The notes under the pieces were generated by a model. That model was not told where the DNA came from, made no database searches, and saw nothing but the letters and a program-made list of their open reading frames with translations. Source: an uncultured Gemmatimonadales bacterium (lineage in GTDB: Bacteria > Gemmatimonadota > Gemmatimonadetes > Gemmatimonadales > Gemmatimonadaceae). Taken from it: a DNA stretch of 64,000 nt. The position numbers and the translations under genes are program-made. Location of the stretch: assembly GCA_963851265.1 (NCBI GenBank), contig CAWKNZ010000007.1:384001-448000 (forward strand), in the 5' to 3' direction. Positions 4,325-44,701 of this stretch are shown here, piece after piece; within the stretch, counting starts at the first letter, position 1; each line of letters starts with the position of its first letter.

Positions 4325-4357
4325 GCGCGAGAAGCTAACCCGGAGTGGCCGTCCGAC

Positions 4358-5703: not shown

Positions 5704-6040
5704 GCGGGGGCGGCAGGGCGGATGCGTCCCGCTACGTTAGCCGCGTCGCGGTCGCGGCGGTACGCGGCGGTACACCGCGCGCATCGCGGCCGTCGAGGCC
5801 ACCGCCGCCAGGAGCGCGACCGGGCGGCGAAAGTGGGCGCGTGCGAGCTGGCGTGAGCATGACTCCGGGTCTCGGGCTCCCGTCAGGTGCCGCACTTCCG
5901 ACCGTCCGCGGCGTTTACGTCGCGCTTGCGTCGACCGCCTCCGCTCGCGCCCTCCGCCGCGGTGAGCCTTGCCAGGTCCGCACACCGGGTGTGCGGCCTT
6001 CGACTGCGTGCGCCGCGATGCGGCGGCCGGACGCCGCCCC

Positions 6041-6625
6041 CTACGAGCGTCGACGCCGTGCTGCGGCCGCGAGGCCGAGGCCGACCGCGACGAGCCCGAT
6101 CGTCGCCGGCTCGGGCGTCACCGTCCCGGTCGGGTTGGCCGCCAGGATGGCGGCCGGCGTGTTCTCGAGGGAGAAGTACGTCGTCGCGCCGTCGGCCAGT
6201 GCGTTCGTGAACTCGATGGTGCCCGTCGTGTTATCGGGGCTGACGTTCGCGAACCGCATGTTCGGACCTTCATATCCCGTGGCGTGCGCCCACGTGCACG
6301 TAATGTTGAACGTGCACAGGCCGTCGTTGTCGAATCCGAACGCGTCGAGGTTCGGGGTGGTGAGCGTGAACGCGCTCACCGCGTGTCCCGAATTGTTGAG
6401 GACTCCGACGAGCGCGTCATCATTCCCATCGTAAGGTCCTTGCGTGGGGTCGCGCGTGATGCTGACGCTCCCGTCGGGGTTGAACGTGATCAGCACGCCA
6501 CAACTCGCGTCCCCACCCACTCGCGGACACTCGGTGAACGGTTGCGCCCTCGCGGTGCCCGGGGCGAGGACGACGCCGAGCGCGAGTGCGCTGGCGAGAA
6601 GAGCAGTCGAACGGAGCGTGCGCAT
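6041..6625 (-). CDS. PEP-CTERM sorting-domain secreted protein
   Basis: GGAGG RBS, signal peptide ending ARA-Q, C-terminal TPEPATIGLVAVGLGLAAAARRRRS. Confidence 0.9.
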   Translation of the reverse strand: MRTLRSTALLASALALGVVLAPGTARAQPFTECPRVGGDASCGVLITFNPDGSVSITRDPTQGPYDGNDDALVGVLNNSGHAVSAFTLTTPNLDAFGFDNDGLCTFNITCTWAHATGYEGPNMRFANVSPDNTTGTIEFTNALADGATTYFSLENTPAAILAANPTGTVTPEPATIGLVAVGLGLAAAARRRRS

Positions 6626-6734
6626 GCGACCTCCCGAAAGGAACGGCTGCGGCGGTGGCCCCGCCGCCGGGCGTGAACGCCGGCCGCGCGCGGCATCCGG
6701 CCGGATGCGCCGCGCCGAGCGTGAATGGCGCGCT

Positions 6735-6763
6735 ACGATACGAATGACCGCCGGATCGCGCAA
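6735..6763 (-). promoter_or_regulatory. Putative sigma70 promoter of the PEP-CTERM gene
   Basis: TTGCGC-N17-TATCGT on the minus strand about 110 nt upstream of the start. Confidence 0.5.
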
Positions 6764-6854
6764 TAGCTGCGAATCGTGACGAAGCCGACGCGGGCGACGC
6801 GTTTCTGACGGTCCGTCCCTAATGGTCCGGCGTTCGGCGGCGCGCGCCGCCCCG

Positions 6855-8195
6855 TCACGCGTCGTCCAGCACCCCGCCGCCGGTCGCGGCGGGCGCGCGC
6901 GCGCCGCCGAGGAAGCGGTCCACGACCGCGTACGCCAGCGCGAGTTCCTCGTCCGTGGTGCAGTACGGCGGTAGCACGTAGCACGCGTCCCCGAGCGGCC
7001 GCAGGAGCACGCCCTCCGCGAGGGCGTACTCGGCGAGCCGGCGGCCCACCGGAGCGAGGTAGCCCTCGCCGCCGTCGTCCGCGAGGTCGAACGCCGCGAC
7101 CGTGCCGAGGACGCGCGCGCCGCGCACGCGCGGGTGCGCGCCTAACGCTGCGAGCTCGCGGCGGTGCGCGGCCTCGATCCGCGCGCGCGCCGCCGCGCAC
7201 GCCGGGTCGCGGAGCAGGGCGAGGCTCGAGAGCGCCGCCGCGCAGGCGACGGGGTTGGCCGTGAACGAGTGCCCGTGAAAGAACGTGCGGCGGCGGTCGT
7301 CGCTCAGGAAGGCGTCGAACAGTTCGCCGCGAACGGCGGTCGCCCCCATCGGAAGGAACCCCCCGGTCAGCCCCTTCGACAGGCAGACGACGTCGGGCTC
7401 CACGCCGGCGCCGCCGCACGCGAAGAGCGGCCCCGTGCGCCCGAACCCGGTCATCACCTCGTCCGCGACGAGGTACACGCCGGCGTCACGGCACCGCGCC
7501 GCGAGCGCGCGCAGCACAGCGGCGTCGTACATCCGCATCCCGGCCGCGCCTAACACGAGCGGCTCGACGACGAGCGCGGCGAGTTCGCCGCGGCGCGCGC
7601 CCAACAACGTGTCGAACGCGGCGAGCGTGCCCTCGGGGTCGCGGCTCGGGTCGGGGAGCCGGGCGACCTCGAAGAGGTGCCCCTCGTACGCCGCGGAGAA
7701 CACGCCCCGCGCGCCGACGCTCATCGCGCCGAACGTGTCACCGTGGTACGCGCCCTCCAGCGCGGCCACGAGGCGGCGCGGACGCCCGCGGTTGTGCCAC
7801 GACTGCAGCGCGATCTTCACGCCGACTTCGACCGCGGTCGACCCGTTGTCCGAGAAGAACACGCGCTCCAACCCCGGCGGCAGCACCGCGGCGAGTTCGG
7901 CCGCGAGTCGAGCGGCCGGGGCGTGCGTGAATCCGGCGAAGATCACCTGCTCGAGCGCGCCCGCCTGCTCGGCGACCGCGCGCGCGATCGCCGGCTCGGC
8001 GTGGCCGTGCAGCGTCACCCACCAGCTCGAGATCGCGTCGAGGATGCGGCGGCCGTCGGCCGCGTGGAGCCAGGCGCCGCGCGCGCCCACGATCTCCACG
8101 GGCGAGGGGGCGTTCCAGTGCTGTGTGTACGGATGCCAGACGTGCCTCGCGTCGAGCGCGAGGACGTCGGGCGCATGCTGACGTTGCGTGTGCAT
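6855..8195 (-). CDS. bioA: Adenosylmethionine-8-amino-7-oxononanoate transaminase
   Basis: WHPYTQ, DAISSWW, SDNGSTAVE, YHGDT, DEVMTGFGRTG, SKGLTGG. Confidence 0.95.
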   Translation of the reverse strand: MHTQRQHAPDVLALDARHVWHPYTQHWNAPSPVEIVGARGAWLHAADGRRILDAISSWWVTLHGHAEPAIARAVAEQAGALEQVIFAGFTHAPAARLAAELAAVLPPGLERVFFSDNGSTAVEVGVKIALQSWHNRGRPRRLVAALEGAYHGDTFGAMSVGARGVFSAAYEGHLFEVARLPDPSRDPEGTLAAFDTLLGARRGELAALVVEPLVLGAAGMRMYDAAVLRALAARCRDAGVYLVADEVMTGFGRTGPLFACGGAGVEPDVVCLSKGLTGGFLPMGATAVRGELFDAFLSDDRRRTFFHGHSFTANPVACAAALSSLALLRDPACAAARARIEAAHRRELAALGAHPRVRGARVLGTVAAFDLADDGGEGYLAPVGRRLAEYALAEGVLLRPLGDACYVLPPYCTTDEELALAYAVVDRFLGGARAPAATGGGVLDDA

Positions 8196-8249
8196 CGGGG
8201 GCAAAGGCCGGCACGGCCGGCGGGGCGGGAGAGGGCGGCTCGGGCGGTC

Positions 8250-9482
8250 CTACCGCGCGAGCACCGCGGCCACCGCTTCGACCGCCGCGTCGACGTCGGC
8301 GTCGCTGTGCGCCGCGCTGGCGCTGAGCCGGAGCCGTGCCGCGCCCGCGGCGACCGTCGGCGGCCGGATCGCGCCGACGAGCACACCGCGCGCGCGCAGC
8401 GCGTCGCCGGCGCAGGCGGTGCGGCGCGCGTCGCCCACGAGCACGGGAATGATGTGCGCGTCGTCCGCGCCCGGCAGGCGGAGCCCGGCCGCGGCCAGCC
8501 CGGCGCGCAACCGGCGCGCGACCGCGCGCACCCGCTCGCGCCGCCACGGTTCCGCGGCGGCGACGGCGAGCGCCGCGCGCGCGCCCGCCGCGACCGCGGG
8601 CGGGGGCGCGGTCGTGAAGACGAACGACCGCGCGCGGTTGAGCAGCCACTCGCGGAGCGGCCGCGCGCCCGCGACGAACGCCCCGGCCGCGCCGAACGCC
8701 TTGCCTAACGTTCCGACCGTCACGTCCACGGCGCCCTCGACACCGCAGCGCGCCGCGCTCCCGCGCCCGCCGGGCCCGACGACGCCGGTCGCGTGCGCGT
8801 CGTCGACGTACAGGAACGCCCCGTGTCGCCGCACGACCTCCGCCGCCTCGGCGAGCGGGTGCAGGTCGCCGTCCATCGAGTACACGCCCTCGACCACCAC
8901 CCAGCGGCGCCGGAAGCGGCCCGCGTCGGCGCCTAACGCGGCGTCGAGCGCGGCGGGGTCGGCGTGCGGCACCACGCGCACCGCCGCGCCGCCCGCCCGC
9001 GCGAGGCGGCACCCGTCGACGATCGAGGCGTGGTTGAGCGCGTCCGAGTAGATGACGTCGCCGGCGCCGGCGAGCGCGGGGATCGTGCCCGTGTTCGCGG
9101 CGTACCCGCTGGCGAAGCACAGCGCGGCGTCGGCGCCCTTGAGCGCCGCGAGTTCGGCCTCGAGGGCGTGGTACTCGGGGTGATCGCCGCCGATCAGGCG
9201 CGCCGACCCGGCACCGAGCCCCTCGCGGGCGAGCAGCGCGGCGGCGGCCGCGGCGGGGCGCGGGTCGGCCGCGAGCCCGAGGTAGTCGTTGGACGCGAAG
9301 TCGAGCATCCGCGGGCCGGACGTGCGCGCGCGCGGACGGAGCGCGCGCCGCAATCCCGCCGCGTCGAGCGCCGCGAGCTCGGCGTCGAGCTGCGCCGCGA
9401 GCGACGCGTCGGGCGGCAGGTCGGCCGACCGGTCGGCGCGCGGGTCGAACGGCGGCGGGAAGGGTGCGAGAGCATCTGCCAC
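8250..9482 (-). CDS. bioF: 8-amino-7-oxononanoate synthase
   Basis: FASNDYLGL, SGYAAN, NHASIVDG, YSMDGD, DDAHA, TLGKAFG, IRPPTV. Confidence 0.95.
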   Translation of the reverse strand: MADALAPFPPPFDPRADRSADLPPDASLAAQLDAELAALDAAGLRRALRPRARTSGPRMLDFASNDYLGLAADPRPAAAAAALLAREGLGAGSARLIGGDHPEYHALEAELAALKGADAALCFASGYAANTGTIPALAGAGDVIYSDALNHASIVDGCRLARAGGAAVRVVPHADPAALDAALGADAGRFRRRWVVVEGVYSMDGDLHPLAEAAEVVRRHGAFLYVDDAHATGVVGPGGRGSAARCGVEGAVDVTVGTLGKAFGAAGAFVAGARPLREWLLNRARSFVFTTAPPPAVAAGARAALAVAAAEPWRRERVRAVARRLRAGLAAAGLRLPGADDAHIIPVLVGDARRTACAGDALRARGVLVGAIRPPTVAAGAARLRLSASAAHSDADVDAAVEAVAAVLAR

Positions 9483-32206: not shown

Positions 32207-32653
32207 TCAGGTGGCGTCCGGGTCGGCCATGATCTCGACGAGGTTGCCGTCCGGGTCGCGGACGGCCGCCTCGTAGTAGCCGTCTCCGGTGAGGCGGGGC
32301 CCGGATTCGACGGGCACCCCGTCCGCGCGGAGGCGCGCCGCGAGAGCGTCCACCGCCGCGCGCGAGCCGACCGCGAGAGCGAGGTGGGCGTACCCGACGA
32401 CCTCCCCCAGCGCCGCGGGTGCGAGCGCCGGGGCCGTCATCAGCTCGATGCGCGCGCCGTGTTCGCGCGCGGTCGGATGCGAGTCGTCGCGGACCGACGC
32501 CGGGAAGTGCAGGAAGTACGACGCGAACCCCGGGCGGCGCGCGCTCGCGTAGCGCGGTCCGACGGTCGCGCCGAAGTACGTCACGTAGAACGCACGTAAC
32601 CGTTCGAGGCTGTCCGCGTCGTGCGTCCAGACCGCGACGTGGTCGACGCGCAT
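32207..32653 (-). CDS. VOC family (lactoylglutathione lyase-like) protein
   Basis: DHVAVW, GYAHLALAVGS, PRLTGDGYYEAAVRDPDGNLVEI. Confidence 0.88.
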   Translation of the reverse strand: MRVDHVAVWTHDADSLERLRAFYVTYFGATVGPRYASARRPGFASYFLHFPASVRDDSHPTAREHGARIELMTAPALAPAALGEVVGYAHLALAVGSRAAVDALAARLRADGVPVESGPRLTGDGYYEAAVRDPDGNLVEIMADPDAT

Positions 32654-32684: not shown

Positions 32685-33326
32685 TCAGAACGCGCGGTTG
32701 ATACTCTGGCCGCAGACCGTGCCGCTCACCGATCCCGTCCCGGCGGGCGCCACGCTCGCCGTGTAGTCGAGCTGACAGCTACCGCCCGACCAGCTGAATC
32801 CCCCGGAAATGCGGACCGTCGCGATCCCCGACTGCGCGAACGCCGCCACCGGTATGGCGATCGCCATTGCGATCGCCGGCGCGCCCGTCACCGCGACGTT
32901 GCGGTCACCAGCCGACACCACGCAGCCCTGCGGAGTGGACGTGATCGTGCTCGTGATCGTTCCGCTGCCACGCTCGTCCAGGTTTTCGGTGAAGGTCGCC
33001 GTACCCGTGACCGAACCGCCGAGCGGGCATGCCTCGCTGAACGAAACGGGTGACAGAACGAGCCGCGGCAGCCCGTCCGCTGCCGAGGCGGGCGCGGTTG
33101 GCGCGCGCGAGAACGCGAGCGACGCCGGAATGCCGGCGAGGTGCGTCGCACCGCCCACCGCGCCGTACATCTGCGCGACGAACGCACTCGCGATCGCGCC
33201 GGCCTCGTCGGCGCTGAGCCGGTTCGCCGGGTTTCTCGCGGGGTCGGTGGCGGACGAACACGCCGCAGCGAGCGTCGTGCTGGCGGCCACGCCGAACAGC
33301 GCCGGCCGACTTTTAGTGCGTAGCAT
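32685..33326 (-). CDS. Hypothetical lipoprotein
   Basis: GAGG RBS; lipobox LAAAC; Cys-containing beta-rich body (CPLGG, GTVCG). Confidence 0.7.
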   Translation of the reverse strand: MLRTKSRPALFGVAASTTLAAACSSATDPARNPANRLSADEAGAIASAFVAQMYGAVGGATHLAGIPASLAFSRAPTAPASAADGLPRLVLSPVSFSEACPLGGSVTGTATFTENLDERGSGTITSTITSTPQGCVVSAGDRNVAVTGAPAIAMAIAIPVAAFAQSGIATVRISGGFSWSGGSCQLDYTASVAPAGTGSVSGTVCGQSINRAF

Positions 33327-33472
33327 TCGGTGGACCTCTGGCGCGTGTCGGACGGGGACGAGCGCGCACCCCGCCGCTCGCCCCGCGGCCGCGTGCTCGT
33401 GCCGGGCAATACTGACCCGGCACCACGAGCTGTCAATACGCGGGCGCCGCAACGGGCCGTCCTACGGGCCCG

Positions 33473-34852
33473 CTACTGCTCCAGCGTGTACAGGTACGCC
33501 GCGATGTCGCGCGCGTCGCCGTCGGTGACGCCGAGGTTGGGCATCGCGTTGCCGGGCGCGACCGACTGCGGCATCACGATCCACTGGACCAGATGCTCGG
33601 GCGTGTTGGCGAGGTAGCCCGCGATGATCGCGCGCTCGCGCCAGCCGGTGAGCGGCGGGCCGACCATCCCGTCGGCGCCGCGGATGCCGGGAATCAGGTG
33701 GCACGATCCGCAGCCGTACGTGCGGATGGCGCGCGCGCCGCGGGCCGGGTCTGCCGCGAGGTGCGCGCCGCCCTGGATGGACGCGAGTTCGCCCGTGCTC
33801 GCCAGATCACCGCCGACCTCGCTCCCCTCGCGGCGGCCCTCGCCCCCGCATGCGCCGAGCAACACGAACACGAGGAGCGCCGCGGCCGTCGCGCCGAACG
33901 CGTGCGCCGACCGGAGCCCGCGCGCCGGCGCGCCACGCGACCGGCGCGCGTCGGCGAGCATCCACCGCGCCGCGAGTGCGAGCGCGGCGCCGACGTAGAC
34001 GAGCCCCGCCGGCACCCACATCACGAGCCCGGCCAGTTGCTGATCGGCGATGAGCGTCGTGTGCCACGCGCGCGCGCCCGCCGCGTGCACGGGGTACCAC
34101 GGCGCGCGCGAGAAGGCGAGCAGCGCGCCCATCGCGCTGCCCAGCAGCCCCATGCTCATCACGTACAGGATGCCGGCCGCCTCGCCGAGCACCCGACGCC
34201 CGGTCGGCTGCGCCACGCGCCACCAGAACAGCCACGCCGTGCCGAGGAAGCTGACGTGCTCCAGCGCGTGCACCGCGTCGTTGCCTAACGCCGCCGAGTA
34301 GAGGACGGGGACGTGCCAGGCGACGAGCGCCACCGCGTGGAGCAGCCACGCCGCGGCCGGGGTGGCGACGGCGTGCGTGACCGCGCGCGCCGCCCGCTGC
34401 GGCGCGCGCCGCGCGTTCCACCACCTGGCCAGCGCGCGCCGGGCGCCCGCCGGCGGCGCCCACGCGAGCGCGAGCGGCAGGTTGGCGAGGGCGAGCAGCG
34501 GGGCGGCGACGAGGATCAGCAACAGGTGCTGGGCCATGTGCGCCGAGAAGAGCGCGTCTGCCACGGCATCGAATGGGGACACGAGCGCGGCGAGCAGGAC
34601 GACGATGGCCGCCGCGAACGCCCGCGCCTGCGCGATGCGGACCCCGCGCCCGCGACCCGCCCGCGCCCAGATCCGGCGCACGCCGAGCGCGTACGCCGCG
34701 GCGAGCAGGAGCGACGCGACGAGCGGGCCGACGTCGGGCGCCCACCCACCGGCGGCGCCCACCGCGTGCTGGCCCACCGGGTGCGCCCACGCCACCGCGG
34801 GTGTGAGCAGGGCGGCCAGGACGAACCGAACGTGTCGCGCGGTCACCGACAT
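33473..34852 (-). CDS. caa3-type CtaG assembly protein fused to C-terminal cytochrome c
   Basis: FSAHMAQHLLL, WHVP, HALEH, DQQLAGLVMW; then CGSCH and AMPNL. Confidence 0.88.
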   Translation of the reverse strand: MSVTARHVRFVLAALLTPAVAWAHPVGQHAVGAAGGWAPDVGPLVASLLLAAAYALGVRRIWARAGRGRGVRIAQARAFAAAIVVLLAALVSPFDAVADALFSAHMAQHLLLILVAAPLLALANLPLALAWAPPAGARRALARWWNARRAPQRAARAVTHAVATPAAAWLLHAVALVAWHVPVLYSAALGNDAVHALEHVSFLGTAWLFWWRVAQPTGRRVLGEAAGILYVMSMGLLGSAMGALLAFSRAPWYPVHAAGARAWHTTLIADQQLAGLVMWVPAGLVYVGAALALAARWMLADARRSRGAPARGLRSAHAFGATAAALLVFVLLGACGGEGRREGSEVGGDLASTGELASIQGGAHLAADPARGARAIRTYGCGSCHLIPGIRGADGMVGPPLTGWRERAIIAGYLANTPEHLVQWIVMPQSVAPGNAMPNLGVTDGDARDIAAYLYTLEQ

Positions 34853-35265
34853 CCCTCCACGAACGCGGCGCCCGTCGCCAGTACGATGCCGATGAGGGCG
34901 ATCGCCGCGAGCACGCCGCCGAAGAGGGCGAGGAACGCGGCCCGTTCATTCCGGACCCCAGTGCCGACGATGTCGGCGTGCGGAAAGCGGCGGCGCCCGC
35001 GCGCGAGCGCGACCGTCACGAGCGCCATGAGCACGAGCGCGACGGCCGACGCGGGAAGCGAGATCGCGCGCGGCCCGCCTCCGGCCCGGCACGCGTTGTA
35101 CGACCCGATGTAACTCACCGCCTCGTGGAGCGCCCAGACGATCGGTCCGAGCGCGAACCAGATCCAGAGTCGCCGCAGGGCGCCCGGCGGCGGTGGCGGC
35201 GCCGAGGGCTTCCCGCCCGATGCGGACGGTGCGGGTGCCGAGGAGGACGTTGCGGATGCGGCCAT
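34843..35265 (-). CDS. Small membrane protein in the oxidase operon
   Basis: Three TM segments; GPIVWALH...Y...AC; C-terminal Cys. Confidence 0.7.
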   Translation of the reverse strand: MAASATSSSAPAPSASGGKPSAPPPPPGALRRLWIWFALGPIVWALHEAVSYIGSYNACRAGGGPRAISLPASAVALVLMALVTVALARGRRRFPHADIVGTGVRNERAAFLALFGGVLAAIALIGIVLATGAAFVEGCR

Positions 35266-35275
35266 CAGTCCCTCC

Positions 35276-35899
35276 TCAGAAGCGCGGCGCGAGGTAGAGC
35301 GACGTGAACACGATGAGCCACACCGCGTCGACGAAATGCCAGTACAACACCGTGTTGTTCACCGCGAGCGTGCGCCCGGGCGGAAACGCCCCCGTGATCG
35401 CGCGCAGCAGCGTGTGGCCGAGCGCGAGCAGCCCGGCGAACACGTGCGCGCCGTGGAACCCGGTGATCGTGTAGAACATCGAGCCGTACGCGTCGGTCTG
35501 CGGCCGGAACTCCGCGCGCGACCACTCGAGCCCCTGCACGCCGAGGAACACCGCGCCCATCACGATCGTGAGCGCGAGGCCCGCGATGAGGCCGCCGCGG
35601 TTGCCGCGGTCGGCGCTCCGGTCGGCCCACCACGCCGCGCCGCTGCTCGCGACGAGCAGCGCGGTGTTGGGCGCGACGAGCGCGAGCGGCGGCGCGCCGG
35701 TGGTCGGCCAGGTCGCGTGCTGCACGGCGAGGTAGAAGTAGCTCCCGAGCAGGTAGCTGAACAGCGCGGCCTCGGTCGCGAGCAGCACCATCATCCCCCA
35801 CCAGCCCACGTCGTGCCCGCCGCGCCCGGCGGACACCGGCGGGCGCGCGGGCGCGCCCGCGGCGACGTCGTTAGGCGCCGTCGCGCCGGCCGCGCTCAC
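35276..35899 (-). CDS. ctaE: Cytochrome c oxidase subunit III (short form)
   Basis: ATEAALF, TGFHGAHV, LYWHFVDAVW; GTGA overlap with subunit I. Confidence 0.9.
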   Translation of the reverse strand: MSAAGATAPNDVAAGAPARPPVSAGRGGHDVGWWGMMVLLATEAALFSYLLGSYFYLAVQHATWPTTGAPPLALVAPNTALLVASSGAAWWADRSADRGNRGGLIAGLALTIVMGAVFLGVQGLEWSRAEFRPQTDAYGSMFYTITGFHGAHVFAGLLALGHTLLRAITGAFPPGRTLAVNNTVLYWHFVDAVWLIVFTSLYLAPRF

Positions 35900-37899
35900 G
35901 CCGTACCCCCGCCGTAGGCGGGCTCGGCGCCGCCGTCGCCGCTCCGCGGCGGCACGCCCGGCGCGTGGTGCCCGGCCGGCCAGAACCACGCGCCCAGTGC
36001 GAGGACCGTCGCCGCCACCCCGAGCACCGACGGCCAGAAGCCGCGCAGCATGAGCCCCCAGAACAGCAGCGCGAGCGCGGCCGCGAGCGCGAGCGGCCAC
36101 GGCGAGTCGCCGGGCATGTGCATGATCCCCTCGTCACCCGCGTCCATCACCGTCGTGCCGAGCGTCTCGCGGCCCTCGAGCAGCGTCGCCCCGCGCGCGC
36201 CCGAGTCCAGGGCCGCGATCTCGTCGGCGCCCTGCTCCCACAGCGGCTCACGCCCGCGCACGGTCGGGATGCGCGCGAAGTTGTACGCCGGCGGCGGCGA
36301 GCTCACCGACCACTCCAACGTGCTCGCGCCCCACGGGTTGTCGCCGGCCGGCTCGCCGCCGGCCAACGAGCGCACCACGTTCGCGAGGAAGACGAGGAAG
36401 CCGATCGAGAAGATCGCCGCCCCGATCGTCGACCACATGTTCGCGCTGTCGAACCCCATCCCCTGCGCGTACGTGTAGACCCGCCGCGGCATCCCGGCGA
36501 GGCCGAGCTGGTGCATGGGCCAGAAGAGCACGTTCGCCCCGACGAACAGCAGCCCGAACGAGAGCTTGCCGAGCCCCTCGTGCATCATCTTGCCGGTGAA
36601 CTTCGGGAACCAGTAGTGGATGCCCGCGAGCACCGGGAACACGTTCGCGCCGACGAGGACGTAGTGCAGGTGCGCCACCACGAAGTACGTGTCGGTCACC
36701 TGGCGGTCGAAGGCGACGAGGCCCGTCATCACGCCGCTCAGCCCCCCAATCACGAACAGGAGGAGGAACCCGATGCAGTACAGGAAGGGCGTCTTGTAGA
36801 CCGGCTTCCCGAACCAGATCGTGGTCACCCAGGCCACTGTCGTGATGCCGCTCGGCAGCGACACGGTCATGCTCGCCGCCGAAAAGAACGACGTCGACAT
36901 CGCCGACATGCCGGTCACGAACATGTGGTGCGCCCACACGCCGAAGCCGAAGATCGCCACCGCGACGCTCGCCAGCGCGACGAGCGTGTACGCGGCGAGC
37001 GGCCGGCGGCAGAATGTCGGAATGATGGTCGAGACGATACCGAACGCCGGCAGCACGACGACGTACACCCACGGGTGCCCGAACACCCAGAACAGGTGCT
37101 GCCAGAGGAGCGCGCTGCCGCCGCCCTGGGGGTCGAAGAAGTGCATGCCGTAGCGCCGGTCGAGCTCGAGGAAGACGAGCGCGACGGTGAGCGACGGCAA
37201 CGCGAAGACGATCGCCACCGACGCGCTCAGCGTGCTCCACACGTAGATCGGCATCCGGTTGATCGACATTCCCGGCGCCCGCAACTTCGCGATGCTGACG
37301 ATGAAGTTGGCCGCGCCCACCGTCGTCGAGATCGTCAGGAACAGCAGCCCGAGCGCGTAGAAGTCGAGGTTCGGCCCCGGCGAGTACGCGCGCGAGGTGA
37401 GCGGCACGTACGCGAACCAGCCGCCGTCGGGCGCCTGGCCGACGAGGATGCTGCCGTAGAGGAAGCACCCCGCGAACAGGAAGCTCCAATAGCTGAACGC
37501 GTTGAGGCGCGGGAACGCCATGTCGCGCGAGCCGATCAGCAGCGGCACGAGGTAGTTGCTGAAGCCCGACAGCACCGGCGATGCGTAGAGGAAGATCATC
37601 GCCGTGCCGTGCATGCTGAACAGCTGGTTGTACGCCTCGGGCGAGAGGAACCGCGAGTCGGGGCGCGCGAGCTGCACGCGCATGAGCGCCGCGTCCGCGC
37701 CGGCGAGCACGAAGAAGAACGCCGCCGTCCACAGGTAGCGGATCCCGATCGTCTTGTGGTCGACGCTCGTGAGCGCGCCGGCGAGCGTGCGCGGGGTTTC
37801 CCAGATCCACCGCAGCCGTTCGACGGCGGCGCGCGGGTCCGTCGCGCGCGGGTCGGCGGGGGCGACGGGGACGGGCGTGGGTTCGACGCGCGTGGCCAT
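35896..37899 (-). CDS. ctaD: Heme-copper oxidase subunit I (atypical A-family-like)
   Basis: DHKTIG, MHGTAM, DMAFPRLN, GHPWVY, WAHHM, AHLHYV, GMPRR. Confidence 0.93.
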   Translation of the reverse strand: MATRVEPTPVPVAPADPRATDPRAAVERLRWIWETPRTLAGALTSVDHKTIGIRYLWTAAFFFVLAGADAALMRVQLARPDSRFLSPEAYNQLFSMHGTAMIFLYASPVLSGFSNYLVPLLIGSRDMAFPRLNAFSYWSFLFAGCFLYGSILVGQAPDGGWFAYVPLTSRAYSPGPNLDFYALGLLFLTISTTVGAANFIVSIAKLRAPGMSINRMPIYVWSTLSASVAIVFALPSLTVALVFLELDRRYGMHFFDPQGGGSALLWQHLFWVFGHPWVYVVVLPAFGIVSTIIPTFCRRPLAAYTLVALASVAVAIFGFGVWAHHMFVTGMSAMSTSFFSAASMTVSLPSGITTVAWVTTIWFGKPVYKTPFLYCIGFLLLFVIGGLSGVMTGLVAFDRQVTDTYFVVAHLHYVLVGANVFPVLAGIHYWFPKFTGKMMHEGLGKLSFGLLFVGANVLFWPMHQLGLAGMPRRVYTYAQGMGFDSANMWSTIGAAIFSIGFLVFLANVVRSLAGGEPAGDNPWGASTLEWSVSSPPPAYNFARIPTVRGREPLWEQGADEIAALDSGARGATLLEGRETLGTTVMDAGDEGIMHMPGDSPWPLALAAALALLFWGLMLRGFWPSVLGVAATVLALGAWFWPAGHHAPGVPPRSGDGGAEPAYGGGTA

Positions 37900-38933
37900 T
37901 AGTGCAAGCTCTCGAGGTAGGCGACCACGGCCTGCAGGTCGGCGCCGGACATCGCGACGACGGGCATCCGGTTGCCGGGTTTGATCCGCTGCGGGTCGCC
38001 CACCCAGCCGGCGAGGTCGCCGCGCGTGTTGGGCAGCGTCCCGGCGGCGAGCGTGGCGCGGCTCGCCAGGTGTGTGAGGTCGGGCCCGGCCTGCCCGCCG
38101 AACTCGGTGCCGCGTACCGCGTGACATCCCGCGCAGCCGAGCGACGCGAACGCGACGCGCCCGGCCTGCTCGTCGGGGCGGGTGGCGGGCGCCGCGGGCG
38201 CGTGCTGCGCGGCGAGCCACTCGCCATACTCCACCGGCGTCTGGGCGACGACGGTGAACCCCATGTGCGCGTGCTGCTGCCCGCAGAACTCGCCGCACTC
38301 GCCGTAGTACGTGCCCGCCGTGTCGGCCTCGAGCCAGATCGTGTTCACCTGACCGGCGACGAGGTCGGTCTTGCCGGCGAGCTGCGGCACCCAGAAGGAG
38401 TGATTCACGTCTTGCGTGCTGAGGGCGATGCTGACGCGCCGGCCGACGGGCACGTGCAACTCGTTCGCGGTGACGACGCCGCTCTTCGGATAGCGCACCT
38501 CCCACCACCACTGGTGCCCGACGACCACCGCATCGGCGCGCGCGGCGGCGTCGGGGTCGTTGACGGCGAACGGCTGCGCCTGCGCGTTGGTCTTCACCGT
38601 CGACCAGACGAACACGGCGGCCAGCACGAGCGCCGGCAGCACGAGGCCTAACATCAGGATGCCGCGCACCTCGTCCGGGTGGTCGTGCTGGTCGCGCGCG
38701 GACGCCGCGGCCCCGGCGACCGAGAGGTCGCCGCGCCCGCGGTTGCGCCAGAGGGGCGTCGCGAGAAAGCCGATGAAGATCAGGAAGACGATCGTCGAGA
38801 TCGCGATCAGCGCCCAGCCGAGCGCCGCCGACTCGACGGCCGCGCGCCCGCGGGCCGCGAAGATGGACAGCGTCGTCGGCGTCTGCGTCGGGATGAGCGC
38901 GAGCACCGCCAGCGTGGCACGCAGCGCCGTCAC
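37899..38933 (-). CDS. ctaC: Cytochrome c oxidase subunit II with CuA site and fused cytochrome c (caa3 type)
   Basis: HQWWW, DVNHSFW, CGEFCGQQHAHM, CAGCH, KPGNRMP. Confidence 0.93.
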   Translation of the reverse strand: MTALRATLAVLALIPTQTPTTLSIFAARGRAAVESAALGWALIAISTIVFLIFIGFLATPLWRNRGRGDLSVAGAAASARDQHDHPDEVRGILMLGLVLPALVLAAVFVWSTVKTNAQAQPFAVNDPDAAARADAVVVGHQWWWEVRYPKSGVVTANELHVPVGRRVSIALSTQDVNHSFWVPQLAGKTDLVAGQVNTIWLEADTAGTYYGECGEFCGQQHAHMGFTVVAQTPVEYGEWLAAQHAPAAPATRPDEQAGRVAFASLGCAGCHAVRGTEFGGQAGPDLTHLASRATLAAGTLPNTRGDLAGWVGDPQRIKPGNRMPVVAMSGADLQAVVAYLESLH

Positions 38934-39640
38934 GGGCCGGTGGTGCGCGGGGCGACGACGAGCGAGCCGGTGGCGTGGCGCGCGTGGCCGCCCGGCCACG
39001 GCTCGCCGCGCGTCTGCGCGATGGCCCAGACGTAGGCCGCGACCTCGCGCGTCTCGTCGGCCGTGAGGTCGCCGTAGAGTCCGCGCATCGGCATCGCCAC
39101 CTGCGAGCGGGTGATGTTTTCGGGCACGCCGTTGAGGATGAGAGAGTCGGCACCCGCCCACCCGGCCGCGTTCTCGATCGGCACGTAGATGAGACCGGCC
39201 GTCAGGGAGGACCCGCGCTTGGGAAGACCGGTCGCCTCCATGCCGTGGCACTGAAAGCAGCCGCCCTTCCCGTGGAAGATCGCGTCGCCCGCGACGATGT
39301 CGTCCACGCGCATGCTGTCGGGGAGGGTGGGCAGCGTATCGGGCTGAGACTCCTCGTCGGTCTCCGTGACGCGCGCCAGCGCGAGCGGGGTCGTGCTCGC
39401 GAACACGCTCGCGCCGGTCGACGACGCCGCGCCGGGCGGCGCGACGGCGCCGAGCGTGCGGAGCGCGCCATACGGCTGGTCGCTGCCGCGCGCCGCGTTG
39501 GTCGCATGCAGGAGGTCGGTCGCGAGAAGTCCTCCACCCACGACGATCACGGTCGCGACCGCCCAGACGGCGCGCCGGCTCACGCGTGGCTCCGCCGGCG
39601 GCTCTGCTCGGGGCGAATCGGTTGGCTGCGGTGTTGGCAC
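38930..39640 (-). CDS. Monoheme cytochrome c (paralog 2)
   Basis: N-terminal TM segment; GKGGCFQCHG; distal AMPMRG. Confidence 0.88.
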   Translation of the reverse strand: MPTPQPTDSPRAEPPAEPRVSRRAVWAVATVIVVGGGLLATDLLHATNAARGSDQPYGALRTLGAVAPPGAASSTGASVFASTTPLALARVTETDEESQPDTLPTLPDSMRVDDIVAGDAIFHGKGGCFQCHGMEATGLPKRGSSLTAGLIYVPIENAAGWAGADSLILNGVPENITRSQVAMPMRGLYGDLTADETREVAAYVWAIAQTRGEPWPGGHARHATGSLVVAPRTTGP

Positions 39641-39643
39641 GGC

Positions 39644-41482
39644 TCAGTGTTTTCCGCCGCTACTGCCGCCGCTACTCGGCCGCGGGAGCGTGTCGACGGT
39701 GGTGACCGTCGGTGAGGTGGTGCGACCGCGCGCGTCGAGCGTGAACACGACGACCTCGTCCCCGCGCGGCGTGTTGGCGAGCAGGTTCCCGCCCGCGGCC
39801 ACGGCGACGTACTGCACGCCGTCGATCGCGTAGGTCATCGGCGGGGCGTTCACGCCGGCGCGCGCCGTGTACGCCCAGAGCTGCGCGCCGGTGCGCGCGT
39901 CGAGCGCAAGCACCTTCTTGTCGGACGTTCCCGTGAACATCAGACCGCCCGCCGTGGCGAGCGCGCCTCCGACCATCGGCTTCGGCGTCGGCACGAGCCA
40001 CGCGACGCGCCCGGTGTTCACGTCCACCGCGGAGATCGTTCCCGTGGGCTTCGACGTCGACGGGTAGTACCGGCCGCCGACGTACCACGCCCCGGGGTCG
40101 CGCTCCTCGTGCCGGCGCTTGTACAGGAAGGGCTCGCGCAACCCGAGGATGTACACGAGCCCGGTCTGCGGGCTGTACGCCGTGGGCGACCACTGCGAGC
40201 CGCCGAAGGCCCCGATCTGCTGCACCACGCCGCCCTGCAGCGGCGGGGCGGGGAAGGTCGGGCCGATGCCCGTGAACGGATCGGAGCGGCGGATGGGTGC
40301 CCCGGTGCGGCGGTCGACGATGAAGAACCACCCGGCCTTGCCCGCCTCGCCGGCGGCCGGCACCACGCGCCCCGACGCGTCGCGCACGTCGAACAGCACC
40401 ACCGGACTGGCGAGGTCGAGGTCCCACGTGTCGTGCGCGACTTCCTGCGCGCACCACGCGCGCTTGCCGGTGCGGTAGTCGACGGCGATGATGCTGTTGG
40501 CGCACAGGTTGTCGCCCGGCCGCACCGAGCCGTCGACGTCGGGCGACGTGTTGCCGGTCGAGAAGATCGCGTAGTGCAGCACCGTGTCTATGGCCGGGTT
40601 GTTCCAGACCGGCGCGCCGCCGTGCTTCCACGCGTCCGCGTACTTGGCGCTGTCGCGGTGTTCCTGCGCGAGGTCGCGGTGGAAGTCCGCGCCGAACGCG
40701 TCGCTCGCACCGAACTTCCCCCACCAGCCGCCGTCCTCGGGTCCCAACACCGTGTGAAAGCGCCAGAGTTCGTCGCCGCTGCGCGTGTCGAGCGCGACGA
40801 CGAAGCCGCGGATGCCGTACTCGCCGCCGCTCACCCCGAGCATCACCCGGTTCTCGATCACCGTGGGCGCCGCGCTGAAGCTGTAGCCCTGGGTGTTGTC
40901 GGCGACCTTGCGGTCCCACAGCAGGTGCCCCGTCGCCGCGTCCAGCGCCACGATGCGCGCGTCGAGCAGGCCCAGAAACACCCGGCCGCCGTACACGGCG
41001 ACCCCGCGGTTCATCGCCCCGCAGCAGATCACCGTCTTGCCGAGCTCGGGTACCCATTCCCAGCGCTTCGCACCGGTTCGCGCGTCGAGCGCGATCACGT
41101 GGTCGAGCGCGGTCGAGAGGTACATCGTGCCGTCGACCACGACCGGCGTGGCCTCGAACACGTGCGGCACGCCGGTCTTGTAGACCCAGGCGACGCCGAG
41201 GCGGCCGACGTTGGTCGTCGTGACCTGTGTGAGCGGCGACCAGCGCTGGTTGGAGTAGTCGCGCCCGTTGAGCGCCCACGCGCCCGTGTCGGCGAGGGCG
41301 CGGCGGAGGGCGGCGTCGGCCGTGCGCGCGTCGTCGGTGCGCACGGTCACGTGTGCGGCGGCGTCCGGCGTCCCGGCCGCGGCGGCGCGACCGCATCGTG
41401 TGGTCGCGGCGACCGCGGCGAGCGGGAGCAGCGCGGCCGCGCCGCGGCGCAGCGTTAGGCGAATCATACTCGGCGGCATCAT
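39644..41482 (-). CDS. PQQ-dependent alcohol-dehydrogenase-family protein (paralog 2)
   Basis: Vicinal ICCG, NRGVA, SGGEYGIRG, GNTSPD, HDTWDLD, QYVAVAAGG. Confidence 0.88.
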   Translation of the reverse strand: MMPPSMIRLTLRRGAAALLPLAAVAATTRCGRAAAAGTPDAAAHVTVRTDDARTADAALRRALADTGAWALNGRDYSNQRWSPLTQVTTTNVGRLGVAWVYKTGVPHVFEATPVVVDGTMYLSTALDHVIALDARTGAKRWEWVPELGKTVICCGAMNRGVAVYGGRVFLGLLDARIVALDAATGHLLWDRKVADNTQGYSFSAAPTVIENRVMLGVSGGEYGIRGFVVALDTRSGDELWRFHTVLGPEDGGWWGKFGASDAFGADFHRDLAQEHRDSAKYADAWKHGGAPVWNNPAIDTVLHYAIFSTGNTSPDVDGSVRPGDNLCANSIIAVDYRTGKRAWCAQEVAHDTWDLDLASPVVLFDVRDASGRVVPAAGEAGKAGWFFIVDRRTGAPIRRSDPFTGIGPTFPAPPLQGGVVQQIGAFGGSQWSPTAYSPQTGLVYILGLREPFLYKRRHEERDPGAWYVGGRYYPSTSKPTGTISAVDVNTGRVAWLVPTPKPMVGGALATAGGLMFTGTSDKKVLALDARTGAQLWAYTARAGVNAPPMTYAIDGVQYVAVAAGGNLLANTPRGDEVVVFTLDARGRTTSPTVTTVDTLPRPSSGGSSGGKH

Positions 41483-41497
41483 CGACTCGGCGTCATC

Positions 41498-42235
41498 TCA
41501 ACGCGCACCCCCCGCCGGGCGTTCGGCGGGCGTGCGACTCGCCTTGAGGCGGTTCGCAGGTTTCGCGTCGGCGCTCACCGTGGCCGGCGCACCGGTGCCG
41601 CGCGTCGGGCGGGCGGGCGGCACGCGCTCCGCGCCGCGCGGAACTGCGGATGCCGTGCCGGTGGCTGCCGCGGGCGTCGGAACGAGCGCGCCGTGCAGCT
41701 CGTGCCCGCCCGGCCAGGGCTCGCCGCGCGTCTGACTGATCGCCCACACGTACGCGGCCACGCGCCGGATCTCGTCCGACGAGAGGTCGCCGCGTGCCCC
41801 GCGCGCGGGCATCCCGATCGGGCTCCGGCTCTGCACGTCGGGCATCCCCGCGCGGATGAGCGAGTCGATCGCGCGCCACTGATACGGCACGTACGCCAGC
41901 CCGGCCGTGATGCCGTCGCCGGCCGCGGGCATCCCCTGCGCCTCGACGCCGTGGCACACGAAGCAGCCGCCCTTGCCGTGGAAGATGGCGTCGCCCGTCG
42001 TGATCTGGTCGAGTGTCATGCCGGGGGGCAGCGGCGCGAGCCGGGCCGGCTGCAGGTCGTCGTTGCGCGGGTTGGGCGAGGTCACGGCCGTATTGCCAGA
42101 GGGCTGCTGCGGGTGGGCCTGACCCTGCTGTGCGCCCGCGGCCGTCGCCGCGACCGCGAGCAGCGCGCAGGCTCGCGCGCCGAGTCGCGCGCCTCGGCGC
42201 GCGAGCCGATCGCGCACGTGCTGCACCACGGTCAT
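41498..42235 (-). CDS. Monoheme cytochrome c (paralog 1)
   Basis: Signal peptide; GKGGCFVCHG; GMPARG; ATGA overlap with the upstream dehydrogenase. Confidence 0.88.
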   Translation of the reverse strand: MTVVQHVRDRLARRGARLGARACALLAVAATAAGAQQGQAHPQQPSGNTAVTSPNPRNDDLQPARLAPLPPGMTLDQITTGDAIFHGKGGCFVCHGVEAQGMPAAGDGITAGLAYVPYQWRAIDSLIRAGMPDVQSRSPIGMPARGARGDLSSDEIRRVAAYVWAISQTRGEPWPGGHELHGALVPTPAAATGTASAVPRGAERVPPARPTRGTGAPATVSADAKPANRLKASRTPAERPAGGAR

Positions 42236-44115
42236 GGCTTCCCGCCGAGCACCGGATTCACCGCCGGCTCGCCCGAGCCGCGCGCCGTGTCCTGCATCGC
42301 ACGCGCCGTCGCCGCACGGCCCACCCCACCCTCCGCGCCGGTCGAGGCGCCGGTCCGCGGGCCGCCCGAGGCCCCCGCGCCGTCGAGCGCGAACACGAGC
42401 ACCTCGTCGCCGCGCGCGCTGTTGAGCGGCAGGTTGCCCCCGGCCGCCACCGCCACGTACTGCCGGCCGTTGAGCGCGTACGTCACCGCCGGCGCGTTCA
42501 CCCCCGCGCGCGCGCGGTAACGCCACACCTCGTGCCCGTTGCGCGCGTCGTACGCGACGAACGCCGAATCGGAGAGTCCGGTAAAGACGAGCCCACCCGC
42601 CGTCGCGAGCGCGCCGCTGATCGTCGGTTGCGCGAGCCGCACCTGCCAGGCGATGCGCCCGGTGTTGAGGTCGACGGCCGAGAACGTTCCGTAGTGCCCC
42701 GTCTGCCCAGACGTGACCACGCCGCCCCAGTACTGCGCCGGCGCCTGCAGCTCCTCGTGCTGCCGGCGGTACAGCTGCGGGAAGTAGTTGCCATCCACGT
42801 ACAGGTATCCCGTCTCGGGGCTGTAGGCCGGCGGTGACCAGTCCGACCCGCCGAGCGTGGACGGCGCGATCACGACGCCCGCCTCGGTCGGCACGGTGAA
42901 CATGTTCTCCTGCGGCACGAACGCGTCGGAGCGGCGGATCGGACGTCCGGTGCGGCGGTCGAGCACGTACACCCACCCCGTCTTGCCCGCCTGCGCGACC
43001 GCCGGCACGGCGCGGCCGGTCGAGTCGCGCACGTTCACTAGCACCACCGGCGATGCGGGGTCGTAATCCCACAGGTCGTGCGAGACCTCCTGGTAGTGCC
43101 AGCGGTACTCGCCCGTCTTGAGATCGATGGCGACGATGCAGTCGGTGAACAGGTTGTCGCCGGGCCGCACGCGGCCGTCCACGTCCGGGGCGGCGTTGCC
43201 GATGTTGAGATAGACCAAGCCCAACGCGGTGTCGACGGCCGGGGTGTGCCACATCGGGCCGCCGCCGTGGCGCCACGCGTCGGGGTACGTCGCGCTGTCC
43301 CGGTGCTCCTGCGCGAGGTCGCGGTGGAAGTCGGCGCCCCAGGGATCGCGTGCCCGCCACGCGCCCCACCAGCCGCCGTGCGCGGGATCGGGGATCGTGT
43401 AGAAGCGCCACACCTGCTTTCCGGTGCCCGCGTCGTACGCGGTGACGTAGCAGCGGCCGCCCTGCTCGCCGCACGAGATCCCGGTGATGACCTTGCCGTC
43501 GACCGCGAGCGGCGCGGCGGTGATGTGGTAGCCCTGCTGATTGTCGCCGACCGACACGTCCCACAGCAGGCGACCGCTCGCGGCGTCGAGCGCGACGAGG
43601 CGCGCGTCGACGGTCCCCATGAACACGCGCCCGCCGTAGACCGCCACGCCGCGGTTGATCGGCCCGCAGCAGTCGACGGTCGTCCGGTACGGGTGCACGT
43701 ACTCCCAGCGCTTCGCGCCGGTGGTCGCGTCGAGCGCGACGACGTGGTTGCGCGGCGTGGAGATGTACATCACCCCGTCGACCACGACGGGGCTCGTCTC
43801 GAAGCCGGCGACGATGCCGGTGTGGTAGATCCACGCGGGCGCGAGTCGCGCCACGTTCGCCGTCGTGATCTCGCCGAGTGGCGACCAGCGTTGATTCGAA
43901 TAGTCGCGGCCGTACGACGGCCACGCGGCGCCCGCCGCCATGGCCGACCGAATCGCCGCGTCGGCGTGCCGCGCGTCGACGCCCGCGGACGGCGCCTCAC
44001 GCGCGTCGGCATCCGTCCCGCGACAGCCCGTCCCTGCGGCGACCCCGGCGGCTAGTACTCCCATCACCCCACGACACCTGCCCGCCCGTGCGATCGCACG
44101 GCGTAACCGCCCCAT
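42232..44115 (-). CDS. PQQ-dependent alcohol-dehydrogenase-family protein (paralog 1)
   Basis: GGGAGGAG RBS; DCCG, NRGVA, SCGEQGGRC, GNAAPD, HDLWDYD, QYVAVAAGG. Confidence 0.88.
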   Translation of the reverse strand: MGRLRRAIARAGRCRGVMGVLAAGVAAGTGCRGTDADAREAPSAGVDARHADAAIRSAMAAGAAWPSYGRDYSNQRWSPLGEITTANVARLAPAWIYHTGIVAGFETSPVVVDGVMYISTPRNHVVALDATTGAKRWEYVHPYRTTVDCCGPINRGVAVYGGRVFMGTVDARLVALDAASGRLLWDVSVGDNQQGYHITAAPLAVDGKVITGISCGEQGGRCYVTAYDAGTGKQVWRFYTIPDPAHGGWWGAWRARDPWGADFHRDLAQEHRDSATYPDAWRHGGGPMWHTPAVDTALGLVYLNIGNAAPDVDGRVRPGDNLFTDCIVAIDLKTGEYRWHYQEVSHDLWDYDPASPVVLVNVRDSTGRAVPAVAQAGKTGWVYVLDRRTGRPIRRSDAFVPQENMFTVPTEAGVVIAPSTLGGSDWSPPAYSPETGYLYVDGNYFPQLYRRQHEELQAPAQYWGGVVTSGQTGHYGTFSAVDLNTGRIAWQVRLAQPTISGALATAGGLVFTGLSDSAFVAYDARNGHEVWRYRARAGVNAPAVTYALNGRQYVAVAAGGNLPLNSARGDEVLVFALDGAGASGGPRTGASTGAEGGVGRAATARAMQDTARGSGEPAVNPVLGGKP

Positions 44116-44233: not shown

Positions 44234-44701
44234 ATGTCCGACTCCACCCGCGCGTGCCCGTTCTGCGACCTGGTCCGCGGCTCGGCCGAGGTCTCGCTCT
44301 GCTACGAGGACGCGACGGCGATCGCGTTCATGGACATCCAGCCGGTGAATCCGGGGCACGTGCTCGTCGTGCCCCGCGAGCACTACGAGTGCATCGACGA
44401 CCTGCCGCGCGAGGTCGGGGAGCATCTGTACGGCGTGGCGACGCGCCTGATCCCGATCATCCAGCAGGTCGCCGGCACCCGCGACATGAACGTGGTCGTC
44501 AACAGCGGCGCCACGGCCGGCCAGGACGTCTTTCACTTCCACGTGCACCTGATCCCGCGGCGTGCGGGCGACGGCTTCGACGTGCCGCTCCCGTTCCCCG
44601 AGTCCGAGATGCCCGACCGTACGCGCCTCGACGCGATGGCGGCCCGCATCATCGCCGCCGTGCGCGATCCGGTGCGTCGCACCGCCGTAACGCCGCCTTA
44701 G
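44234..44701 (+). CDS. HIT family nucleotide hydrolase
   Basis: CPFC, DIQPVNPGHVLVVP, AGQDVFHFHVHLIPR. Confidence 0.93.
   Translation: MSDSTRACPFCDLVRGSAEVSLCYEDATAIAFMDIQPVNPGHVLVVPREHYECIDDLPREVGEHLYGVATRLIPIIQQVAGTRDMNVVVNSGATAGQDVFHFHVHLIPRRAGDGFDVPLPFPESEMPDRTRLDAMAARIIAAVRDPVRRTAVTPP

Follow-up and report, generated by a model that had tools for sequence, protein, structure and literature searches.

The XoxF3 systems of Acidobacteria and Gemmatimonadetes are the closest described relatives of the gene row considered here, and combine xoxF3 with genes for CoxI/II/III, CtaG, a cytochrome c and a protein of 110-130 amino acids encoded between CoxIII and CtaG (Voutsinos et al. 2024, PMC10875860). 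Among cytochrome c oxidase (COX) operons, type a-II is described as one in which pyrroloquinoline quinone (PQQ) dehydrogenases are frequently found (Degli Esposti et al. 2014, PMC4013037), and has since been renamed A1 subtype a in PMC6431628, where COX operons of this kind are filed under A1. The lanthanide enzymes confirmed among eight-bladed quinoproteins belong to the XoxF clades and to ExaF/PedH only, according to PMC11996626. The row itself lies in a 64,000-nucleotide (nt) stretch of an uncultured Gemmatimonadales bacterium (contig CAWKNZ010000007.1, positions 384,001 to 448,000; hereafter the window), and its nine genes encode two PQQ dehydrogenases (DH1 and DH2), two cytochromes c (cyt c1 and cyt c2), a caa3-type oxidase and associated proteins. 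On balance it is probably a short periplasmic respiratory chain, in which two predicted lanthanide-PQQ dehydrogenases pass electrons through their own cytochromes to a dedicated caa3-type oxidase.

A preliminary description of this DNA had not recognised the arrangement as a described system. As the layout is already in print (PMC10875860, PMC4013037), the row is not an undescribed system; an annotated example of the layout is a plasmid locus of Sinorhizobium medicae (L121; L labels denote fetched loci, G labels sampled genomes with G000 the host genome, and C labels host contigs), and the host genome has it twice more, in dehydrogenase-plus-cox cassettes with XoxF3-like enzymes at C9:90.5-99.7 kb and C10:167-175.5 kb. 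The co-located coxII, coxI, coxIII, small protein gene, ctaG and cytochrome c of the XoxF3 systems are all present in the row, whilst their XoxF3-clade dehydrogenase and xoxG/xoxJ are not. What sets the row apart is that the known cassette carries an input family outside XoxF, paired with a cytochrome family of its own, together with a conserved and unusual oxidase.

DH1 and DH2 are 58% identical, and the closest named record to DH1 comes from a Gemmatirosa sp. (L001, 89%). In a tree of 45 rows (IQ-TREE quick search, LG+G4, with the SH-like approximate likelihood ratio test, SH-aLRT, as the only support value) both fall inside a clade of 26 rows (SH-aLRT 99) that excludes the XoxF-like, Exa-like and quinohemoprotein rows, so that the phylogeny which had been suggested as a check of the preliminary description puts both enzymes outside XoxF in a clade of their own, one that takes in proteins of Paraburkholderia sprentiae, Ideonella dechloratans and Alloyangia pacifica (46-48%). 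The trees are subsets of 130 extracted proteins that omit most quinohemoproteins and near-identical relatives and hold no MxaF, sorbose or PDB sequences, and their labels rest on similarity and neighbours, apart from T4_00353, the enzyme published as xoxF3 that L138 was confirmed to encode (supplement row of PMC11102522). Identity to T4_00353 is 31% for DH1 and 29% for DH2, against 67% and 56% for the host C9 and C10 enzymes. Two further placements were tried on a 42-row set with the approximately unbiased (AU) test and rejected; these were a joint clade of 13 close rows with five XoxF3-like rows, T4_00353 not among the five (p-AU 1.2e-4), and a sister relationship of DH1 and DH2 such as recent local duplication would leave (p-AU 1.2e-6). 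The trees place DH1 and DH2 in different old subfamilies of one non-XoxF clade, so the input module is duplicated, as first described, in the sense that two pairs are real, but the duplication is old and not local.

The clade is not readily matched to a named class. Against the Acido-empty quinoprotein group A model (TIGR04528) DH1 and DH2 score 355 and 323 bits, below the curated cut-off of 650; no close solved structure was found for either, the best scores being spread over type II enzymes, PedH and XoxF, and the characterised PQQ enzymes compiled in Table S1 of PMC11996626 include no class that matches. Type 8 PQQ alcohol dehydrogenases (ADHs) are reported to be abundant in weathered-rock genomes including those of Gemmatimonadota (bioRxiv 10.64898/2026.07.10.737718), and the clade may already bear a number among the uncharacterised types of Keltjens 2014 (e.g. 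type 8).

The active site of DH1 has C149-C150, E217, N307, D350, D352 and K378, and that of DH2 C153-C154, E221, N311, D354, D356 and K382. The vicinal cysteine pair over PQQ, E217, W289, N307, D350, D352 and K378 (DH1 numbering) are invariant in the 120 nearest homologues. Published lanthanide enzymes have a ligand set of Glu, Asn, Asp and Asp (table in PMC11845868); both DH1 and DH2 have the Glu, the Asn, the Asp and the extra Asp two residues on, and the set in DH1 aligns with that of the PedH entry 6zcv (1kv9 and 1yiq were also aligned). It is likely that both are lanthanide-using enzymes. Lys is found in the DH clade where XoxF and Exa rows carry Arg, a trait shared with type II and glucose-type enzymes, and the C-terminal loop of the clade falls well short of the one in XoxF and Exa rows, which suggests that the pocket is more open and that the substrate is not methanol.

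An 'unusual insert' had earlier been noticed as shared by the two dehydrogenases, yet it is not private to the pair and is the loop signature of the whole clade, with W249, W250, G260, E270 and D273 in 120/120 homologues. A run of 16 identical residues (DH1 260-275, DH2 264-279; 44/48 nt) is far rarer. Of the 120 only the query itself has it, to which can be added L001 and the DH2 copies carried by G525 and G442. We infer that gene conversion in the genus ancestor probably produced this patch, and that G442 later lost DH1. DH1 is possibly a lipoprotein, judging by inspection of its sequence.

The two cytochromes are also paralogues, cyt c2 being 57% identical to cyt c1 over 137 amino acids. 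The heme site of cyt c1 is CFVCH at 91, with Met142 the likely ligand, and cyt c2 has an N-terminal hydrophobic segment (25-43) by which it is likely to be anchored in the membrane. Their best XoxG-like match is 29% over 77 amino acids, compared with 49-56% for the host C9 cytochrome, and by this measure they form a family distinct from XoxG; family scans found no xoxJ among the nine genes. Atlas searches with the proteins of the row returned generic cytochrome c or unnamed clusters only.

The oxidase belongs to the A family, with six His ligands, a cross-link Tyr and a subunit II that carries CuA (motif H178; CGEFCGQQHAHM) and a fused heme c, yet it lacks both the Glu of GHPEVY and the K-channel Lys of the A1 type. 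Compared with solved CtaD structures, subunit I has W277 at the Glu and T353 at the helix VIII Lys, and keeps Y279, N115, D126, N133, S191 and N198; subunit II has no Glu at the K-channel entry position, where the housekeeping copy of the host does. These features are not peculiar to the one sequence. Among the 120 nearest homologues, the position of W277 holds Trp in 119 and Asp in one, that of the helix VIII Lys holds A, S, Q or T in 117, and the His ligands, Tyr279, the Arg pair, N115, D126, S191 and N198 are found in all, with N133 in 119. The A2 type has Tyr-Ser before the CuB His; here F273-G274 occupies that place in 120/120. No paper was found on an oxidase variant of this Trp type (HPWVY), subscription journals lying outside the search, although other COX1 groups have already been reported to lack the K-channel Lys (bioRxiv 10.1101/2020.03.01.968255).

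The Trp form is present in 18/18 fetched loci that join the cytochrome family to cox, in the host C10 cassette and in six annotated proteobacterial plasmid loci; the helix VIII position was read in 24 Trp-type loci, and none has the K-channel Lys. What immediately precedes the oxidase varies among the plasmid loci, with a PQQ enzyme in L135 and L139, a GMC pair in L136 and neither in L137 and L140, whilst in L138 xoxF3 is convergent on the oxidase. Only the C2 copy of the host is canonical at both channel residues; host C9, L121 and the second G066 operon keep the Glu and have Gln for the K-channel Lys. This combination marks a second atypical subunit I (G000:C9:94203-96260; L121:13039-14958; L083:16398-18347), in which the Asn of the N115 position is absent and Asn replaces Asp at the D126 position. 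The proteobacterial cassettes L121, L136 and L137 are set amid genes for MgtC, DUF3606, DUF4142, VTT, GH15 and TPP-enzyme proteins. Such neighbourhoods are typical of general-stress islands, and this setting may hint at starvation-linked expression.

A member of the DH clade was found in 87 of 401 genomes of the phylum (E 1e-120), and the cyt c1 family in 13 of the 401 and in 21 of 301 genomes at family level. Linkage was followed in 28 genomes with the cyt c1 family, made up of the window and 27 fetched loci, G424 and G451 being left out; as the genomes are related, these are not independent counts. In 27/28 the gene directly before a family cytochrome is a clade dehydrogenase, either complete or truncated at a contig end, and the Trp-type oxidase is in the same locus as the cytochrome in 19/28. 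Such a neighbourhood search had been proposed alongside the preliminary description, which saw in the row a wire from substrate to oxidase that bypasses quinone and complex III; with linkage conserved to this extent the wire is still the best reading, but its architecture is not novel. Tandem pairs of dehydrogenase and cytochrome precede cox in four genomes (G000, G525, G611, G533), pairs are found on both flanks of cox in one (G352), a single dehydrogenase precedes cox in four (G442, G542, G428, G521), a pair is combined with xoxF3 and cox in seven (G066, G244, G198, G165, G453, G463, G583), a pair lies downstream of a xoxJ/G-cox block in two (G334, G582), and in one only the cytochrome accompanies the oxidase (G191). 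The pair is thus ahead of xoxF3-cox in 7/28 and in place of xoxF3 in 9/28, and dehydrogenase and cytochrome thus form a module that plugs into the oxidase cassette, either alongside XoxF3 or in its place. A named Gemmatimonadales record (L002) has the two pairs as well as the first part of subunit II. A scan of genome contigs with sequence patterns gave 49 loci, two of them close and the others distant quinoproteins.

The host genome (4.6 Mb, 94.4% complete) provides some idea of how such a chain would be supplied. The absence of pqq genes from the window, as first described, extends to the whole genome, where the searches turned up neither pqqC nor pqqD, and no convincing pqqB or pqqE. Nor was pqqC found in any of G442, G525, G475, G611 and G352, whilst the same search, for which the phylum served as the control, found it above cut-off in 87/401 phylum genomes and in 74/86 other clade-bearing genomes, with no positives among 14 control genomes. 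A TonB-dependent transporter resembling PqqU is encoded at G000:C7:160473-162467 (30% to E. coli PqqU over 693 amino acids), PqqU being reported as common in Gemmatimonadota (PMC12124388). Given this transporter and the lack of pqq genes, the host would appear to import its PQQ. Cytochrome b of bc1 was not found in the host genome, CtaA is encoded elsewhere in it, and with the canonical caa3 operon of C2 (C2:452-458 kb) the host has four caa3-type oxidases in all. The C9 and C10 cassettes are each near a SMP-30/gluconolactonase-like gene.

In the proposed chain each dehydrogenase would be loaded with imported PQQ and a lanthanide, and would oxidise a periplasmic alcohol or aldehyde, one that is probably larger than methanol in view of the clade Lys and the missing long loop. 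The passage of electrons from dehydrogenase to cytochrome is established for type I quinoproteins. The gene order of the row would extend this route from PQQ to cyt c1 or c2, then through subunit II by way of its heme c and CuA to heme a and a3-CuB, and so to O2, with no quinone or complex III involved. The lower D-channel being retained, the oxidase probably uses it to bring in chemical protons from the cytoplasmic side, and probably pumps few or none. The cassette would then be a modular terminal unit that accepts XoxF3, the DH1/DH2 clade, both, or a GMC flavoprotein as input, and having two dehydrogenases would widen the range of substrates with no need of a heterodimer. A bolder version, which is possible but doubtful, is that a widespread soil quinoprotein family uses lanthanides on a non-methanol substrate via a cytochrome family of its own, that an A-family oxidase reduces oxygen without gating Glu or K-channel Lys, by a new proton route or with no pumping, and that the two together make a plug-in, quinone-free scavenging chain running on imported PQQ.

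A number of observations weigh against a dedicated chain of this kind. The Asp-x-Asp motif is also present in the two glucose-dehydrogenase-like proteins of the host, so the motif alone is no proof of lanthanide use and the choice of metal is a prediction; these two PQQ proteins (G000:C5:90689-93049 and C8:115637-118222) also have an internal heme c motif. Genes resembling alternative complex III (C2:958-966 kb) could feed the oxidase as well. No oxidase is present in the fetched locus of 9/28 genomes; in G219, G320, G561 and G057 more than 10 kb of sequence downstream is free of it, and the other five loci are cut by contig ends. The G191 cytochrome adjoins the oxidase with no clade dehydrogenase in its locus. 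Most genomes of the wider DH clade do not have the cyt c1 family, and none of 20 loci of more distant clade members (L090-L109) has a match to that family or to cox. The literature searched gave no biochemical test of any DH-clade member or Trp-type oxidase, and the published expression data are for a relative with XoxF3, in Methylocella tundrae, and not for the operon of the window; its oxidase rises under anoxia, as would not be expected of a plain oxygen reductase. In many of the loci L090-L109 the clade member has genes for a small exported protein and a putative porin behind it, and some are near a xoxF-like gene.

It might be argued that the row is simply another XoxF3-type methanol system in which DH1 and DH2 oxidise methanol or formaldehyde. 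The layout is the same as in the published system, the pair comes directly before xoxF3 in 7/28 genomes, and the host carries mch of the tetrahydromethanopterin pathway (C7:510691-511620), which is consistent with the methylotrophy published for Gemmatimonadota (PMC5103831, PMC6784897). That methylotrophy could be served by the C9 and C10 enzymes, which have about twice the identity of DH1 and DH2 to T4_00353, and with the joint clade rejected by the AU test, xoxJ missing, cytochromes that are not XoxG, Lys in place of Arg and the short C-terminal loop, the argument is rather unlikely to hold. The enzymes could also be partners, either as an obligate heteromer or as a two-step relay, from alcohol to aldehyde and then to acid, within a single supercomplex that includes the oxidase, and the preliminary description had called the input module possibly heteromeric. 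All the two-copy genomes (G000, G525, G611, G533 and G352, and likewise L002) pair enzymes of different subfamilies, the tandem order is kept in 4/28 genomes and the 16-residue loop is identical between paralogues within the genus, but single copies precede the same oxidase in G442, G542, G428 and G521, the second enzyme of G533 and G352 is from another subfamily than DH2, and the G352 pairs sit either side of the oxidase. In G442, a 97% complete genome from the same genus, DH2, cyt c2 and the cassette are retained and there is only one clade member. Since either enzyme occurs alone and the subfamilies are old, an obligate DH1-DH2 heterodimer is unlikely and the heteromeric module goes unsupported; to heteromer or relay, taken together, we would give about one chance in ten.

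The oxidase invites readings of its own. It could pump protons canonically, with replacement residues or waters leaving the yield unchanged, since neither the lower D-channel nor the Arg pair varies and there are other A-family enzymes with a substitute for the Glu (A2 type) or without the Lys (bioRxiv 2020.03.01.968255); with neither Glu nor the A2 Tyr-Ser pair in any homologue, and A, S, Q or T in helix VIII, this is very unlikely. It is highly improbable that the Trp-type enzyme is mainly a nitric oxide reductase or a detoxifying enzyme fed by the dehydrogenases, although both channel residues are lost and NorB has a Trp two residues after the CuB His. The score of subunit I is above the CtaD cut-off, and the cross-link Tyr279, the six His ligands and D126, N115 and N198 are held in all 120 homologues. 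The expression data on this point come from the Trp-type homologue of Methylocella tundrae T4, which is annotated 'A2-caa3-type' and transcribed (PMC11102522). Its rise is about 28-fold in anoxic methanol with N2O relative to oxic methanol (log2 values: subunit I +4.8, II +5.9, III +4.1, ctaG +3.0, xoxF3 +3.3), whereas in the suboxic methane with N2O comparison of the same source the values are -2.2, -3.8, -2.7, -1.2 and -2.7, and the highest of the four transcripts per million (TPM) values is in what appears to be oxic methane, the order of the TPM columns having been worked out from the ratios. The oxidase genes and the adjacent xoxF3 change together in these published RNA data.

The genes of the row are listed in Table 1, with start codons chosen by the authors. 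Nine co-oriented genes with junctions of at most 15 nt had been described, and this is borne out on the minus strand, where the eight junctions from DH1 to ctaG-c range from -10 to +15 nt (in order, an overlap of 4 nt, gaps of 15 and 3 nt, overlaps of 4, 1 and 4 nt, a gap of 10 nt and an overlap of 10 nt); the four motifs quoted with that description and the four heme c (CxxCH) sites are likewise all where they had been placed. The small membrane protein had been given three membrane segments, of which a simple hydropathy scan recovered two, and it has no family match in library scans and matches only unnamed clusters in the atlas. In ctaG-c, the family scan assigns residues 52-298 to PF09678 and 370-457 to PF00034, and in several relatives the two parts are distinct genes.

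Table 1. Genes of the dehydrogenase-oxidase row, in order of transcription (positions within the window)
Gene	Product	Position	Strand	Family match or other support
DH1	Eight-bladed PQQ dehydrogenase	42232-44115	-	PF01011; TIGR03075 464 bits (cut-off 480)
cyt c1	Monoheme class I cytochrome c	41498-42235	-	Cytochrome c family match
DH2	Second PQQ dehydrogenase	39644-41482	-	PF01011
cyt c2	Paralogue of cyt c1	38930-39640	-	Cytochrome c family match
coxII-c	Oxidase subunit II, CuA and fused heme c	37899-38933	-	TIGR02866 CoxB above cut-off
coxI	A-family subunit I	35896-37899	-	TIGR02891 CtaD above cut-off
coxIII	Short subunit III	35276-35899	-	PF00510
Small protein	Membrane protein in the coxIII-ctaG interval	34843-35265	-	Place and size as in XoxF3 systems
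ctaG-c	caa3-type CtaG copper assembly factor with C-terminal cytochrome c	33473-34852	-	PF09678, PF00034

Upstream of the row is a HIT gene in divergent orientation (44234-44701). No sigma-70-like promoter was found for the operon, and the terminator-like sites (7 against 2.5 expected) all lie within genes, have weak T runs and were not used. Downstream by 143 nt is a gene for a possible lipoprotein without a family match (32685-33329, minus strand), and 31 nt beyond it a glyoxalase-family gene (32207-32653, minus strand); neither has a counterpart in related loci, the same-genus L161 and L162 included. Inspection of the window also points to a biotin synthesis-like gene cluster at 3248-9482, and in L002 bioD-like and sulfurtransferase genes, like those of the window, are just upstream of the dehydrogenase pair.

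The wider interest of the row lies in both of its halves. As the DH clade is common in the phylum and is also carried by culturable Burkholderiales and Alloyangia, it offers a ready test of lanthanide catalysis on other substrates. Loci of this kind could be wrongly counted in soil surveys where dehydrogenase-plus-cox clusters are scored as methanol systems. In the linked oxidase, a natural double variant, both changes are at residues held to be central to proton delivery, and with a culturable relative expressing a Trp-type oxidase its proton handling is measurable.

How far the row departs from known systems depends on which of its parts is compared. The XoxF3 systems, which are also found in Verrucomicrobia, share with it a PQQ dehydrogenase and cytochrome c by coxII/I/III, the 110-130 amino acid protein, ctaG and cytochrome c, as well as Asp-x-Asp and the phylum; the row differs in its dehydrogenases outside XoxF, its non-XoxG cytochromes, the lack of XoxJ and NRAMP and the two input pairs. 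The text of PMC10875860 mentions neither a non-XoxF enzyme nor channel substitutions, its gene-cluster figures being outside this comparison. COX operon type a-II is similar in its PQQ dehydrogenases, short subunit III and long subunit I, but is described for proteobacteria with MxaF-related enzymes, and the subunit I of the row is without the A1 Glu and K-channel Lys.

Of the dehydrogenases with solved structures, the ExaA/PedE/PedH enzymes with cytochrome c550 (1flg, 6zcv, 6zcw) are likewise heme-free eight-bladed quinoproteins with vicinal cysteines and a separate cytochrome gene, and PedH shares the Glu, Asn, Asp, Asp ligand set. DH1 and DH2 are however only 34-36% identical to Exa-like plasmid proteins, form a separate clade, have Lys for Arg and no long C-terminal loop, and are linked to an oxidase operon. 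The type II quinohemoprotein ADHs (1yiq, 1kv9, 1kb0) are the top-scoring solved relatives and share the Lys after the metal motif, but DH1 and DH2 have no fused heme domain (no CxxCH) and have Asp where type II has Thr, and the structure search gave no sequence match between the separate cytochrome and the type II heme domain. The oxidase, finally, shares with the A1 aa3/caa3 enzymes (mycobacterial CtaD 6adq/7rh5, Thermus caa3 2yev, R. sphaeroides 1m56) the metal ligands, cross-link Tyr, Arg pair, lower D-channel, CuA and fused heme c, and differs from them in having Trp for the GHPEVY Glu, no helix VIII Lys and no entry Glu in subunit II.

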